From Candidatus Anstonellales archaeon (GTDB taxonomy: Archaea > Micrarchaeota > Micrarchaeia > Anstonellales > J096), in assembly GCA_038890615.1 (NCBI GenBank), contig JAWAFI010000001.1:465536-529535 (forward strand): a stretch of 64,000 bases of DNA. Reading direction: 5' to 3'. This document shows positions 5,057 through 17,960 of this stretch, piece after piece; position 1 is the stretch's first letter; every line of letters begins with the position of its first letter. Below the pieces are notes generated by a model. The model did no database searches and was not told the origin of the DNA. It worked only from the letters and a program-made list of their open reading frames with translations. The position numbers and the translations under genes are program-made.

Positions 5057-5943
5057 GGATCCTGCTTCAGTTCCCTGAAGGCCTGAAGCCAGAGGCAAAG
5101 AAATATGCTGATGAGCTTGAGGCGCAGGGGCACATTGTAATCCTCCACTCATCCCCTTCTTACGGTGCATGCGATATCCCAATCGATGACGCGAAAAAGC
5201 TAGGGGCAGATAAGATAATCCATTTTGGGCATACAAGATACATAAAAGGTGATATTGGCATTGAGGTGGAGTATGTGCCAATAACAAAAGAGATGGATAT
5301 AGCACTGGTTGACAAGAGCATCCCTTTTCTTGAAGGGCACAAGGAATTCTCTCTGATTGCTACCTCTTCTTACCTAGGGCACTTGGAAAAAGTGAAGAAC
5401 AGGTACAATGAGCTCGGTAAAAAGGCAAACGTGCATAATGCCGATGTTGCATCACCTGGGCAGGTGCTTGGATGCGATGGAAGTGCTGCAAAGGACGCGT
5501 TGGTCGTATTCATAGGGGAAGGGCTTTTCCACCTAAAGGCTCTTGCAGGTAAGAAGGTTCTTTACATCCATCCTCCTTCTGGGAATATTGGCTGGGCAGA
5601 AGAAGAGCTTGAAAGGCATGCCAAAAGGAGGAAAGGGGCTCTTGCCAAAGCGCTTGAGGCAAAGACATTCGGCATTCTGGTGAGCACAAAGCCGGGCCAG
5701 TTTTCAATAGCAGCTGCTGAGCAGATTAAAGCAGAGCTTGGCGCGCTTGGCAGGGAAGCATACATAATAGCAGGGAATGAGCTTCTCCATTCATCAGTTT
5801 CAAACTATACATTCATAGATGCTTTCATAACAACTGCGTGCCCCCGCATGGCTGATGATGCAGAGGCTTTTGGCAAGCCAGTGCTTGACATAACCCTATG
5901 CAATGAGCTTATTGACCAGCTAAGGAATCACTTTGGAAAGTAG
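5053..5943 (+). CDS. dph2: Diphthamide biosynthesis protein Dph2 (2-(3-amino-3-carboxypropyl)histidine synthase)
   Basis: It shows the archaeal Dph2 three-domain pattern with conserved Cys (SSPSYGACD, TTACPRM). It overlaps ppsA by ATGA. Confidence 0.8.
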   Translation: MRILLQFPEGLKPEAKKYADELEAQGHIVILHSSPSYGACDIPIDDAKKLGADKIIHFGHTRYIKGDIGIEVEYVPITKEMDIALVDKSIPFLEGHKEFSLIATSSYLGHLEKVKNRYNELGKKANVHNADVASPGQVLGCDGSAAKDALVVFIGEGLFHLKALAGKKVLYIHPPSGNIGWAEEELERHAKRRKGALAKALEAKTFGILVSTKPGQFSIAAAEQIKAELGALGREAYIIAGNELLHSSVSNYTFIDAFITTACPRMADDAEAFGKPVLDITLCNELIDQLRNHFGK

Positions 5944-14074: not shown

Positions 14075-14506
14075 ATGCTGAGGTTTCCCACAAAAGAGGA
14101 GCAGAAAGAGCTTGCTAGGAAGGTTAAGGAATATTACGCCTCACTTTACCCTAGCGAGGAGATTTCAATTGAGGAAGAGGTGTTTACTCCTGAAGAGATA
14201 GGGGAGATGGAATACTTATATTCAGGTGAGCAGGTTATGGAAAGCATTGCTGGCAAGATAGAGGACTTAAAAGAGCTTGCAAAGAAGGGAATAACTCCTC
14301 ATATGGTGCTCATAAGCCAAAAGAGGAAGGGCAAGGAGGCAAGGATGGTGCTTGACGGCCATTTGAGGAGCATTTTTGCCTATTCATATGGAATAGCTTG
14401 GCCTGCATTCCTAGTAGTGCTTCCTCCAAAGGCAAGATCAGGCATTTCCTACCTGAAGCTAGGAAAGGTAAAAGAGGTCGTACAATTATTTAATCAGCGT
14501 ATATAA
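14075..14506 (+). CDS. Hypothetical protein; LemA-associated partner with C-terminal hydrophobic segment
   Basis: It is a 143-aa ORF 4 nt after lemA. It is acidic, with GIAWPAFLVVLPP near the C-terminus. Confidence 0.45.
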   Translation: MLRFPTKEEQKELARKVKEYYASLYPSEEISIEEEVFTPEEIGEMEYLYSGEQVMESIAGKIEDLKELAKKGITPHMVLISQKRKGKEARMVLDGHLRSIFAYSYGIAWPAFLVVLPPKARSGISYLKLGKVKEVVQLFNQRI

Positions 14507-14529
14507 TTATGGCTTTTGACGTTGAGTGT

Positions 14530-14707
14530 TATATTATTTATAAATATTTGTTACAAAATAAGGAAAAGGTTTAAAAAGAGCCCATTAATTTTGTGTATAG
14601 CCCTCCCCCTGAGGGTTGTTCTCCCAAAGAGAACTTTTGCGGGGCGTAAATGGCCGCCAAATAATGTTTTTGTGACGCCCCAAGTGGCGGCCGATTGAGG
14701 TGAATAG
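14530..14707 (+). promoter_or_regulatory. Promoter (TATA tttataaatatt about 14536-14548) and long structured 5' leader of the surface-protein gene, with hairpins, interleaved repeats and an SD
   Basis: Hairpin 1 is CCCTC/GAGGG at 14601-14615. Hairpin 2 is GTTCTC-CCAAA-GAGAAC at 14618-14634. Interleaved complementary 7-mers are GGGGCGT (14641-47), GGCCGCC (14652-58), ACGCCCC (14675-81) and GGCGGCC (14686-92). The SD GAGGTGA at 14695-14701 lies 7 nt before the ATG at 14708. Confidence 0.45.
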
Positions 14708-17344
14708 ATGAAAGGAATACAAAAGATTGGAGCGATAGTAGGAGGAACAGCCTTATTGGCTGGAGCAGCCTTTGCTGGGCTTGCCTTTGAGGATATGGAA
14801 TTGGTTAATCCCAATGGCCAGCCGACAGTGAAGGTAGTCGCAGGCGCAAAAGCCGCCATTAGCGACGGAATAGTGGCAGCAAACATAGCAACGAAGATAG
14901 CAAACTCTGCATACGGCAAGAAGACATACACAGCAACAGTGACAGGCCTTAGCTCAGTCACATGCACGGGAGGCGGAGCAGGAGGAACAGGCACATGCAC
15001 TGTGAAAGAGGGAAGCGAGAGCGTGACCCTTGACATAACAGTGCCTGGCTTGACAGGCTCAGCCCACAACTTCCAGATCCTCATAGGCGACTATGTGGAC
15101 AGGGAGCTGGAAAACAGGGAAAACTACAACACTGCAGACTGGTATGACACAACAACTTCAGAAACAAGCATAAATGCCCACCCATACTCTGATGGGAATG
15201 GAGGAACAGTGGCAGGGGCTTACTCAGATGTAGCTCTCTACAGGATTGATGGAGGCAAGTTCTCTGCATTTGCAGACAAGACAATAGTAGACCCAAGGAC
15301 TGCATCATCCTACACTGAATCGCAAGCAGTGTATGTTGCAGGCCAGGGGCAATACGATGAGGCAGAAGAAGACCTCACTGCATCAATGCAGGGCCTTATC
15401 TACCAGGTGAAGTTTGACGAGAACACTGACAACGGAATCCCAGTGTGCGACCCAAAAGACTCCAAATCAGCAAAGGACTACACAATGTGCGAGGACCACG
15501 ACAGGGTTGACAACCACAGGATGAAAGTTTGGTTCCTAGGCTCTGAGTGGGTAATAGTTGAGATGGAGCCAGCAACAGACACAATTGATGGGAGTGGTGT
15601 TAAAGTAGTTGCAGGAGGCTCTGTAACCCTTGCAAAAGAGAGCGTCTATGGATTCGTGAATGTTGGGGAATACCTTGATGCAGGGGAGATAAAGGTGAGG
15701 CTTGACGACATTACAGCAGGCGATGCAGCAGAGAACCAGAGGGCAGTCATTTCAGTGCTTGATGCAAACGGCCAGCCAACAGGAGTGCAGGACACAATAA
15801 CACCAGGAAGCACAAAGAAAGTTCTTGTTGGAGGCAAAGAGTACAGGATAAGGGTCTACCAGACAGCACCAGGTTACACATTTGGTGCGAAGTGGGCAGA
15901 AATGGCCTTGATAAGCGAGGAATTCACAATAACTGACCAGGAGTACATGGACGAGCCGAACGACCTCTGGAAGGCATCAGTGCTCTGGAAGAACAGGGAT
16001 GCTACAACAGACGATGGAAACAACAACAACGGATACGAAGAGCAGCCAGACTACTTGAGGGCAATCCTCTTGCAGAGGACTGACTTCAACGATGTGCTCT
16101 TCAAGGGCGATGTTGTAAACATCGTTGAGGACCCAGTTGCATTCAAGTTCGCCTTCAATGGATTGGACCTTACCTCAAGCGACTATGACAGGCTTCAGTT
16201 TAAGCTGAAGAAGACGCCGTTCTCAATAACCCTTACTGATAACTCAGTTGTTCCCTTGACAAATGTGGTTGAGATTACAACCTCAGAGAAAACAGCATTG
16301 GAAATGAAGAACGATGGATGCCCAGCAGGAACACCAACACCAGCAGGCCCAAGCGACAAGGCATACCTTGACCTTGACAACTCCATGCTCTACTTGAAGG
16401 AGTCATCCTCAAGCAGCAAGTATGTGCTAGCATGCGATAATACAGCTAACGCAAGTGACTACGCCTATCTTGTCTACTATTCTGCAGGAGACTACTACGA
16501 TCCAGGCGATCTTTGGACTTCTGATGACAGCGGGGGAATAATGGAATTGTTTGCAGATAACGACGAAATCTGGATTTATGTGCACGAGGACGCAGGAGGA
16601 GTTGCATCTGACGACCATGTTGCAGACGTGTGGGAAATAGATGGCTACTACGATGGCTCTAGCTGGAGCTTCCAGAATACACCCTGGACAGCAAATGACA
16701 AGGTATATTATTACAGCACTGGAGACACATACTATGGCTCTGACCTGATAGCAACAACTGGCGAAAAGGAAGAGGGCTATGTTTCCGAGAGGGGCTCTGT
16801 GTTTGTGTCTGAGACAGGCACAGCAATGGAGTTCAAGATTGCAAAGAAGCTCGGCCACTTGCTCTTCTCCTTGATGCCGAACGTTGAGGCAGGATCTGCA
16901 GAGTCAACAAGGGTTGTCCTCCACGAGGGAGAGCAGACCACAATAGGAGGAGTTACTGTAAAGGTCGTTTCAATTGATGAGCAGTTGAACCCATGCACTG
17001 TTGCAGGGGGCTCTGCAAGCTGCACTGTTGCAGGAACAGACGGCGTCTCTGCGGTCATAAGCCCAGAGAACAAGCACTCTGTTGATGTTGCAGTGCCGTA
17101 TGCAGTGAGCAACTTAGTGCTCCTTGACTCTGAGGCAGGAAGCGTGGGCGCAGTGATTTCAGTTGGAGGGCCTGCAGTAAACACAGTGACAGCAAACGCC
17201 TTGACAGGCAGCGATGTAACCCTCAGCAAGCCAGGCGACAAGGTTGTGAAGAAGATCGGCAGCACAATAGTTGTTGCTGGCTACACAGCCGAGGACACCA
17301 TGGAAGCAGGAAGGGACTTCTTGGCTGCACTCAAGAGCAACTGA
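14708..17344 (+). CDS. Large secreted acidic cell-surface protein, candidate S-layer protein (878 aa)
   Basis: It has a signal peptide MKGIQKIGAIVGGTALLAGAAFAGLA and a Thr/Gly/Asp/Val-rich beta-rich sequence. It also has a strong promoter, a long leader and an oligo-T terminator, consistent with a highly expressed surface protein. Confidence 0.55.
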   Translation: MKGIQKIGAIVGGTALLAGAAFAGLAFEDMELVNPNGQPTVKVVAGAKAAISDGIVAANIATKIANSAYGKKTYTATVTGLSSVTCTGGGAGGTGTCTVKEGSESVTLDITVPGLTGSAHNFQILIGDYVDRELENRENYNTADWYDTTTSETSINAHPYSDGNGGTVAGAYSDVALYRIDGGKFSAFADKTIVDPRTASSYTESQAVYVAGQGQYDEAEEDLTASMQGLIYQVKFDENTDNGIPVCDPKDSKSAKDYTMCEDHDRVDNHRMKVWFLGSEWVIVEMEPATDTIDGSGVKVVAGGSVTLAKESVYGFVNVGEYLDAGEIKVRLDDITAGDAAENQRAVISVLDANGQPTGVQDTITPGSTKKVLVGGKEYRIRVYQTAPGYTFGAKWAEMALISEEFTITDQEYMDEPNDLWKASVLWKNRDATTDDGNNNNGYEEQPDYLRAILLQRTDFNDVLFKGDVVNIVEDPVAFKFAFNGLDLTSSDYDRLQFKLKKTPFSITLTDNSVVPLTNVVEITTSEKTALEMKNDGCPAGTPTPAGPSDKAYLDLDNSMLYLKESSSSSKYVLACDNTANASDYAYLVYYSAGDYYDPGDLWTSDDSGGIMELFADNDEIWIYVHEDAGGVASDDHVADVWEIDGYYDGSSWSFQNTPWTANDKVYYYSTGDTYYGSDLIATTGEKEEGYVSERGSVFVSETGTAMEFKIAKKLGHLLFSLMPNVEAGSAESTRVVLHEGEQTTIGGVTVKVVSIDEQLNPCTVAGGSASCTVAGTDGVSAVISPENKHSVDVAVPYAVSNLVLLDSEAGSVGAVISVGGPAVNTVTANALTGSDVTLSKPGDKVVKKIGSTIVVAGYTAEDTMEAGRDFLAALKSN

Positions 17345-17345
17345 A

Positions 17346-17400
17346 GGCAAATCACCTAACCTTTTAATTTCCTTTTTCTTTTTCCCTTAAGCAAATTCTT
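17346..17400 (+). terminator. T-rich archaeal-type terminator region after the surface-protein gene
   Basis: ccttttaatttcctttttctttttccc lies immediately after the stop codon. Confidence 0.4.
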
Positions 17401-17411
17401 TTAAACCTTTA

Positions 17412-17960
17412 TTGCTTCCCTTATCCATGAATCTCTTAAAAGGCATATCCTCTGGCTCAGGGGATGTTGTAAATGCTGTGATAGAAGTGCCAAGGGGCTC
17501 AAGGAACAAGTACGAGTATGACAAGGAAGCTGGAGTTGTAAGGCTTGACAGGGTGCTCCATTCGCCGTTCTTCTACCCAACTGACTATGGCTTTATACCG
17601 CAAACTTGGTACGACGATGAAGACCCCCTTGACATAATGGTTTATACAAGGGACCCAACCTTCCCAGGATGCGTAGTAGAAGCAAGGGTTATAGGGATGA
17701 TGCGCATGGAGGACGAAAAAGGCACCGATGACAAGCTTATAGCTGTGCCTACTGGCGACCCTCTTTATGCAGACATACAGGACATAACAGACCTTCCTTC
17801 CTCACTGCTTGAGGAGATAGCCCACTTCTTTGAGAGATACAAGGACCTTGAGAAAGGCAAGAGCTCAAAGGTAAAGGGATGGTTTGACAAAAAGGATGCG
17901 CTGAAAGTGCTAGAGAAGGGAAGAAGGCTTTTTAAGAAGAAATATGCTGGTAGCGATTGA
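17412..17960 (+). CDS. ppa: Inorganic pyrophosphatase
   Basis: It has EVPRGSRNKYEYD and DEDPLDIMV, the family I PPase signature. Confidence 0.9.
   Translation: MLPLSMNLLKGISSGSGDVVNAVIEVPRGSRNKYEYDKEAGVVRLDRVLHSPFFYPTDYGFIPQTWYDDEDPLDIMVYTRDPTFPGCVVEARVIGMMRMEDEKGTDDKLIAVPTGDPLYADIQDITDLPSSLLEEIAHFFERYKDLEKGKSSKVKGWFDKKDALKVLEKGRRLFKKKYAGSD

Follow-up and report, generated by a model that had tools for sequence, protein, structure and literature searches.

The stretch analysed here, called the window below, comprises 64,000 nucleotides (nt) of contig JAWAFI010000001.1 (assembly GCA_038890615.1, positions 465,536 to 529,535 of the forward strand), and our subject is the 5′ leader of the S-layer protein gene that it carries on the plus strand at 14708..17344. 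Between the promoter region and the Shine-Dalgarno (SD) sequence of this gene lie two interleaved pairs of complementary segments, a candidate RNA pseudoknot. The open reading frame (ORF) encodes a product of 878 aa (93.5 kDa, isoelectric point (pI) 4.33) whose hydrophobic N-terminal segment (residues 7-24) resembles a signal peptide. Pfam PF05124 (S_layer_C) matches this product at 31.2 bits against a cut-off of 23.9, covering residues 36-75 only, and TIGR01564 matches it at 23.8 bits, slightly below the cut-off of 25. The product matches, at 100% identity, a hypothetical protein from a 'Candidatus Anstonellales archaeon' metagenome-assembled genome (MAG), and many of its 125 Micrarchaeota homologs (32-50% identity) are annotated as S-layer protein. 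The neighbors of the ORF encode MCM, LemA, an inorganic pyrophosphatase, and dTMP kinase, which marks the genome as archaeal, and the protein match places it with Micrarchaeota/Anstonellales MAGs (DPANN). On these matches, the ORF is the S-layer protein gene of a Micrarchaeota archaeon of the order Anstonellales. A preliminary description of this DNA had likewise called it a candidate S-layer gene for a secreted, acidic protein of 878 aa, and the S_layer_C match, the pI, the signal-peptide-like N-terminus, and the S-layer-named homologs bear this out.

All of the leader motifs listed in that description, namely two hairpins, four 7-mers, the SD, and the ATG, are present, and unless otherwise stated they and the other features given here are on the plus strand. 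The first hairpin, H1 (14599..14617), is built on a core of CCCTC (14601-05) and GAGGG (14611-15), which flanking A-U and G-U pairs extend to 7 bp around a CCCCU loop (-9.5 kcal/mol). It is followed by hairpin H2 (14618..14634), in which GTTCTC (14618-23) pairs with GAGAAC (14629-34) around a CCAAA middle (-6.5 kcal/mol), and then by a UUUU tract (14635..14638). The dinucleotide GC (14639-40) separates this tract from strand A, GGGGCGU (14641..14647), which pairs with strand A′, ACGCCCC (14675..14681), to form helix S1. Helix S2, of up to 9 bp, is formed by strand B (14651..14659; core GGCCGCC at 14652-58, with U14651 and A14659 as optional additions) and strand B′ (14685..14693; core GGCGGCC at 14686-92). 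Three loops connect the strands: L1 (AAA, 14648..14650), L2 (AAUAAUGUUUUUGUG, 14660..14674), and L3 (AAG, 14682..14684). The SD, GAGGUGA (14697..14703), lies outside the knot and precedes the ATG at 14708; it had been placed 3 nt after the knot, which holds if the extra G14693-U14651 pair is counted, the distance from the B′ core being otherwise 4 nt. The strands of the window, like those of the 65 loci introduced below, follow the H-type order 5′-S1a, S2a, S1b, S2b-3′ with no nucleotides in common, and in the window each helix is stable individually when folded as a lone hairpin (S1, -12.4 kcal/mol; S2, -15.2 kcal/mol).

Considered as a single sequence, the leader gives suggestive but modest support for the knot. 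Its interleaved-helix score is 44, a value that none of 2000 dinucleotide shuffles reaches (27.7 ± 4.9), and on the same crude score two unrelated 110-nt tiles among the 2324 of the window also attain 44. These two tiles start at 5536 (minus strand) and 13971 (plus strand); neither is matched by the covariance model described below, and both are probably chance. Nested minimum free energy folding of the leader, a method that has no means of representing the knot, yields H1, H2, and S2 with z = -1.38. It is because of conservation with covariation, and not because of these single-sequence statistics, that we accept the pseudoknot-type structure as real.

To assess conservation, we assembled 80 loci with S-layer homologs from species-representative genomes of other Micrarchaeota and inspected 170-230 nt upstream of each start codon; 79 loci were assessable. 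The A-B-A′-B′ arrangement is found directly 5′ of the SD in 65 of the 79, at protein identities of 32-47% and with helix sequences that differ among loci. The count includes L001, which was identified by eye (GGAGAC/GUCUCC and AGCCGC/GCGGCU). The extent of the divergence can be seen from L004 (S1, UUGGGGCC/GGCCCCAA; S2, AAGCCGCC/GGCGGCUU), L008 (S1, CAGGGCA/UGCCCUG; S2, AUGUCGUC/GACGACAU), L013 (S1, UGGGCCA/UGGCCCA; S2, UGCAUCGUC/GGCGAUGCA), L076 (S1, UGGGGCA/UGCCCCA; S2, UCCUGUUGCC/GGCAACAGGG), and L057 (S1, CGGCCC/GGGCCG; S2, CUAUCGAG/CUCGAUAG). The closest relative obtained, L081 (50% protein identity), carries GGGGC/GCCCC and UAACCGCC/GGCGGUUA, with an additional hairpin inside L3. One MAG, CAWBTT01, has three S-layer homologs (L030, L043, and L044), with the knot only at L030 and none at L043 and L044.

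The dimensions of the knot center on a compact core of ∼55 nt, with medians of 7 bp for S1, 8 bp for S2, 8 nt for L1, 16 nt for L2, and 5 nt for L3. Across species, L1 is A-rich and spans 0 to 63 nt, and L3 spans 1 to 56 nt. Depending on the lineage, additional hairpins (20-60 nt) appear in L1 (L025, L056, and L066), in L2 (L010, L011, L022, L027, and L082), or in L3 (L081, L010, L011, and L082), and L082 has insertions in all three loops. Such hairpin insertions are confined to L1, the distal part of L2, and L3, and none breaks into the first 12 nt of L2. These 12 nt follow helix B, are unpaired, and read G-N-U-A-A-Y-Y-N-U-U-N-U over the 65 loci, with the specified nucleotides at frequencies, in order, of G 80%, U 85%, A 83%, A 86%, U 86%, U 78%, and U 82%. 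In addition, the nucleotide directly before B′ is A in 69% of loci, and the four positions directly 5′ of strand A are U in 58-77%. The window carries the L2 motif with a G-to-A change and a 1-nt insertion, and its UUGC at 14637-40 is only a partial, loose match to the U-rich positions seen elsewhere.

The covariation analysis required an alignment that keeps both helices in register. A plain MAFFT alignment (A2) gave inconsistent helix registers (for instance in the window, L016, L017, and L075) and was used solely as the seed for a covariance model, R1, that contains S2 only; the resulting R1 alignment (A3) is good for S2 and ragged for S1. Both helices were scored on a gap-free block alignment (A4), which consists of real 14-nt blocks for each strand with constant linkers replacing the variable loops, and in which S2 was anchored via A3 and S1 via the leading G of the G-run and the final C of the C-run. 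In A4, pairing reaches 91-100% in the cores (S1 columns 5-9, S2 columns 30-36), stands at ∼70% at the next position, and lies at 20-45% beyond. Over the 15-pair core, 92.9% of the cells are paired, compared with 72.2 ± 0.9% after column shuffling and 30-44% when the partners are slid by 1-3 columns. The slid controls contain 37-49 compensatory cells with covariation scores of 0.07-0.12, against 214 cells and a score of 0.572 for the true register. Taken by helix, S1 is 90% paired over 64 distinct sequences with two-sided changes in 5 of its 7 pairs, and S2 is 95.5% paired with two-sided changes in all 8; on the model alignment A3, S2 is 93.8% paired with 105 compensatory cells. An extension of S1 through pairing of L1 with L2 was rejected, since columns 11-14 with 49-52 pair at background.

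The pair types are informative as well, with G-U cells numbering 37 and A-C cells 9; this excess indicates that selection acts on the plus-strand RNA and not on a DNA palindrome. The preliminary description had proposed the A:A′ and B:B′ pairings and had named a lack of conservation or covariation in related genomes as the outcome that would speak against them. Both pairings are instead kept in 65 of 79 loci, with compensatory changes in 13 of 15 pairs. From this comparison of sequences, we regard it as very probable that a conserved pseudoknot-type RNA structure is real.

The knot sits within a leader whose layout is shared across loci. A purine-rich B recognition element (BRE) and a strong TATA box (TTTATAAA, TTTAAATA, or TTTAAAAA) are followed after ∼30 nt by one or two hairpins, a U-rich stretch, and the knot, and on the 3′ side of the knot come an often A-rich spacer, GAGGUGA in nearly all loci, and the start codon. 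In 61 of 65 loci, the first hairpin begins no more than 4 nt from TATA+30, and TTTAAAAA is the sole TATA candidate in L003, L013, L060, L078, and L079, in each case ∼30 nt upstream of H1. Two TATA-like boxes are present in the window. Box 1, TTTATAAAT (14537..14546), is the promoter box of the preliminary description; it resembles a TATA box, octamers of its type act as TATA boxes in other loci as judged by sequence comparison, and it may be a second, upstream promoter with a transcription start site (TSS) near 14568, but the TATA+30 rule would have it 32 nt further downstream. Box 2, TTTAAAAA (14570-77), is preceded by a BRE-like, purine-rich GGAAAAGG (the two together spanning 14562..14577) and is the favored promoter, because the conserved rule has H1 starting at TATA+30; the predicted TSS is at ∼14599-14600. 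The window leader would then be ∼108 nt long, with the TSS at the first paired base of H1. The long, structured character of the leader stands as first described, and the ∼140 nt originally given would apply if box 1 were used.

At its other end, the knot keeps a variable distance from the start codon. The spacing from its 3′ edge is 13-60 nt (median 20 nt); in none of the loci does either helix include the SD, nor is there any apparent alternative pairing by which it would be hidden. Sequestration of the SD by B or A′ would involve only 3-5 bp in a single sub-clade (B = UCACCGCC) and was rejected as a general mechanism. The earlier suggestion that the knot gates ribosome access is thus left without a mechanism, because the SD is always free and the spacing is variable. 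The start codon itself can be misplaced in deposited annotation: the gene call of L203 starts at 601 and runs through the leader and the knot (∼650-707), and the real start, MKLNLKKIGA, is at 722, after a GGTGA. L006 and L011 have in-frame upstream ATGs and carry the same risk.

A covariance search with R1 over both strands of 778 kb, made up of the window and the 80 loci (714 kb), gave matches only directly upstream of S-layer ORFs and only on the coding strand, with exactly one match in the window (14637-14696); the exclusive association with S-layer genes is therefore one established over S-layer neighborhoods and the 64-kb window. Searching Rfam 15 with 14480-14760 at E ≤ 10 returned only whalefall-1, on the opposite strand and at 12.7 bits against a gathering threshold of 37, and for 16 other loci no Rfam 15 family overlapped the leader. 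Full-text literature searches found no description of such a motif. A metagenome scan with the pattern TTGGGCCN{3,16}CCGCCGNTAAT returned 120 loci, all of them chance matches and none with the full motif, and is uninformative on distribution. By these comparisons, the element is best classed as an RNA family, apparently undescribed, of the structured mRNA leader element kind.

Around the gene, three T-tracts 3′ of the stop codon (T4 at 17362-65, T5 at 17373-77, and T5 at 17379-83) are, from sequence only, a plausible archaeal oligo-T terminator (17362-17383). Further downstream, a TATA-like TTTTAAAC (17399-17406) precedes an ATG of the pyrophosphatase gene at 17427 by ∼21 nt (the start given in the ORF list is a TTG at 17412), and the mRNA of this gene is probably leaderless or nearly so, in contrast with the long S-layer leader. 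Two mechanical ORFs overlie the leader, 14516-14698 (plus strand, 60 aa) and 14551-15084 (minus strand, 177 aa), and are treated here as non-coding.

We propose that the knot would fold constitutively into a defined tertiary structure and that, together with the 5′-terminal hairpin, it would serve high expression of the S-layer mRNA, which is probably the most abundant mRNA of the cell. Transcription would start ∼30 nt after the TATA box at 14570-77, at the base of H1, and would give an mRNA with a base-paired 5′ end. The structures may act by shielding the message from 5′-end-dependent or 5′-to-3′ exonucleolytic decay, and/or by keeping the adjacent A-rich spacer and the SD unpaired and insulated from upstream sequence, with no hiding of the SD. 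A role in mRNA stability or expression rather than in sensing, which we infer from the anatomy of the leader only, strikes us as having a little under an even chance of being correct. The S-layer protein (SLP) of Candidatus (Ca.) Micrarchaeum harzensis offers a point of reference for expression level: its gene ranks third in expression, the protein is the most abundant, and both a surface lattice and its standing as the dominant envelope protein have been demonstrated (bioRxiv 10.1101/2021.04.28.441871). That protein is likened to the window protein as one of the S-layer type; a protein search from the Micrarchaeales homolog L038 gave no match named Ca. Micrarchaeum harzensis or ARMAN-2.

Bacterial mRNAs offer one of the closest known parallels. 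Long structured 5′ leaders and 5′-terminal hairpins stabilize highly expressed bacterial mRNAs, including S-layer mRNAs, with Lactobacillus slpA, Thermus thermophilus slpA, and E. coli ompA as examples. The present leader would share with them a highly expressed envelope gene, a length of at least 100 nt, a hairpin at what is here the predicted 5′ end, and a strong unpaired SD. It differs in its archaeal BRE/TATA promoter, in the RNases that it would meet, and in a phylum-wide pseudoknot with a conserved junction; the bacterial hairpins are not known to carry a family-wide conserved knot or loop motif.

Several points weigh against the reading of a constitutively folded pseudoknot that promotes expression. 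An L3 of 1-2 nt, as found in six species, is too short for the classical coaxial H-type geometry over a 7-bp S1, and the long L2 permits a non-coaxial packing of the helices. The anchoring of A4 is partly structure-aware and biases the core columns toward pairing; we nevertheless take the signal as real because pairing drops sharply outside the cores and the pair types are varied. The element is also missing from some S-layer genes with ∼20-nt leaders, including L045 and L204-206 of the same order, and is therefore dispensable for S-layer expression as such. As far as these sequences tell, the knot is a mark of a subset of S-layer genes, possibly the major gene, and is repeatedly lost or replaced. 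Lastly, the phylum-wide conservation of loop sequence is not needed by a generic stabilizer and suggests specific recognition, be it by a protein, a ligand, the ribosome, or a nuclease. Since the loop is conserved while the protein is only 32-47% identical, either a defined tertiary fold or a specific partner is suggested.

This conservation also speaks for the chief alternative, in which the knot is a specific regulatory receptor that tunes translation or stability, either as an operator for an RNA-binding protein (in feedback or envelope stress) or as a small riboswitch aptamer. Six or seven unpaired positions are conserved at the junction after helix B, an A is favored before B′, and the positions before A are U-rich; the core is compact at ∼55 nt, and hairpins are inserted only at peripheral loop positions. 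The association with one gene is strict, the knot is near the SD (median 20 nt to the ATG), and small H-type pseudoknots are a common aptamer architecture. Against this reading, no expression platform is recognizable, with the SD and the start codon never in the helices and the spacing at 13-60 nt. No Rfam riboswitch or other family matches at E ≤ 10, an S-layer structural gene would be an unusual riboswitch target, no candidate ligand or conserved neighboring regulator gene is evident, and the element is lost in some lineages. On balance, we consider a receptor possible but unlikely.

Known receptors illustrate both sides of the comparison. The preQ1-II/III, SAM-II, SAM-V, fluoride, and guanidine-III aptamers resemble the element in their size of ∼50-60 nt, their interleaved helices, their conserved junction, and their location in the 5′ untranslated region near the SD. 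In those riboswitches, the SD usually lies within or next to a loop or the 3′ helix strand and is hidden upon ligand binding, whereas here it is always outside at variable spacing, the middle loop measures 16 nt at the median as against 0-1 nt, and no Rfam family matches. The E. coli rpsO/S15 and alpha-operon/S4 operators likewise place a pseudoknot in the leader near the ribosome binding site, and the present knot is possibly protein-recognized as they are. In those operators, the SD or start codon is part of the knot, which mimics rRNA; here the SD lies outside and the gene is non-ribosomal.

Several leaders (for example L010 and L078; in the window, 14652-14666) contain an AGCCGCC-G-(G/U)-UAAU that resembles the archaeal 16S rRNA 530-loop, AGCCGCCGCGGUAAU, itself part of a pseudoknot. 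Mimicry of the 530-loop pseudoknot was considered, but the conserved GNUAAU is in a different loop and the Rfam small-subunit rRNA models gave no match; the Rfam rRNA models gave no local match on the window leader. Recognition by L7Ae through a kink-turn (K-turn), as known from archaeal mRNA 5′ untranslated regions, was considered too. A K-turn within the knot was rejected, as there are no tandem G-A pairs and the position two nt before B′ is not a conserved G. The first leader hairpin of some clades does show a K-turn pattern, and H1 of the window is a plain hairpin whose 5′ strand lacks GA. By eye, the pattern (C-stem, 3-nt bulge, tandem GA, NC-stem) was seen in L015 (2871-2904), L012 (2805-2840), L076 (2784-2819), and L008 (2862-2892), with CCC-UAU-GA-GGGGUGC...GUGCCCC-GA-GGG in L015 and AACUUC-GAU-GA-GAG...CUC-GA-GAGGUU in L012. 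If genuine, it would imply L7Ae binding at these four S-layer leaders.

A bolder version of specific recognition is that the knot represents a cis-acting archaeal RNA of a new class that has a specific partner molecule, either an S-layer-dedicated sensor (riboswitch or protein operator) or an exonuclease stop upstream of the ribosome binding site that works like an exoribonuclease-resistant RNA (xrRNA). The xrRNAs of flaviviruses and plant viruses likewise form a compact knot, by pairing of a hairpin loop with a strand further downstream, ahead of the RNA to be preserved. The likeness is one of helix layout; there is no sequence similarity, and the 5′-to-3′ exonucleases of an archaeal host are aRNase J or aCPSF2, not Xrn1. 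We hold this version to be rather unlikely.

A further question is whether the two helices coexist. A:A′ and B:B′ could instead be alternative hairpins that exclude each other and never form a pseudoknot, as parts of a conformational switch (for example a thermometer or one that acts co-transcriptionally). Nested folding accommodates only one of the helices, the energies of the two in the window are close (-12.4 and -15.2 kcal/mol), and the very short L3 or L1 of some species strains the classical pseudoknot geometry. Exclusion is not forced, however, as the helices share no nucleotides; neither state would expose or hide the SD, the start codon, or any recognizable signal, and conservation is equally stringent for the two helices in every species. 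The loop lengths bear on this point as well: six species have an L3 of 1-2 nt and seven an L1 of 0-1 nt, and in no species are both loops short. Where L1 is at most 1 nt, L3 is at least 5 nt, and where L3 is at most 2 nt, L1 is at least 4 nt, which fits coexistence, with little power in so small a sample. Because the helices have no nucleotides in common, we favor their simultaneous formation, and S1 and S2 most likely form together as an H-type pseudoknot, not alternately; a switch appears improbable.

The leader might also be, or release, a separate stable small RNA, or the AT-rich L2 might be a DNA-level signal such as an internal promoter or a protein-binding site. The L2 motif (G-N-TAAT-Y-N-TTNT) lies ∼55 nt before the ATG, where a weak TATA box could fit, and bacterial S-layer genes often have several promoters. 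Against these options, covariation of both helices needs a transcript that spans A to B′, the excess of G-U over A-C is a sign of selection at the level of the plus-strand RNA, L2 resembles the strong TATA boxes of these genomes poorly, and the interval from the knot to the SD is too short to hold a promoter of its own. A small RNA or DNA-level signal is, on this evidence, very improbable, and adding chance to it leaves the joint prospect scarcely higher. The U-tract of L2 was likewise considered as an archaeal attenuator and rejected, as it is not universal (L015 and L012 lack it) and no helix could form before the tract is transcribed. A chance origin of the interleaved 7-mers in an intergenic region with GC patches, as the two equally scoring tiles and the nested-fold z of only -1.38 might suggest, is refuted by the shuffles, none of which reaches the score, and by the same placement in 65 other species with compensatory changes.

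The pseudoknot-type element thus shows strong covariation in more than 60 species and is linked to one gene only, whose product makes up the surface by which these obligate symbionts contact their hosts. Known archaeal cis-acting structured mRNA elements are few, and we found none described for DPANN archaea; the element is a candidate for a new Rfam family. For annotation, it marks the true start of the S-layer gene, which gene callers sometimes over-extend through the leader. If the knot is an exonuclease block or an expression enhancer, it would be useful in archaeal expression systems. If it is a sensor, it would be the first dedicated to the S-layer, through which a host-dependent DPANN cell would tune its surface coat. 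For an uncultivated phylum, the element offers a concrete way into mRNA decay and post-transcriptional control.

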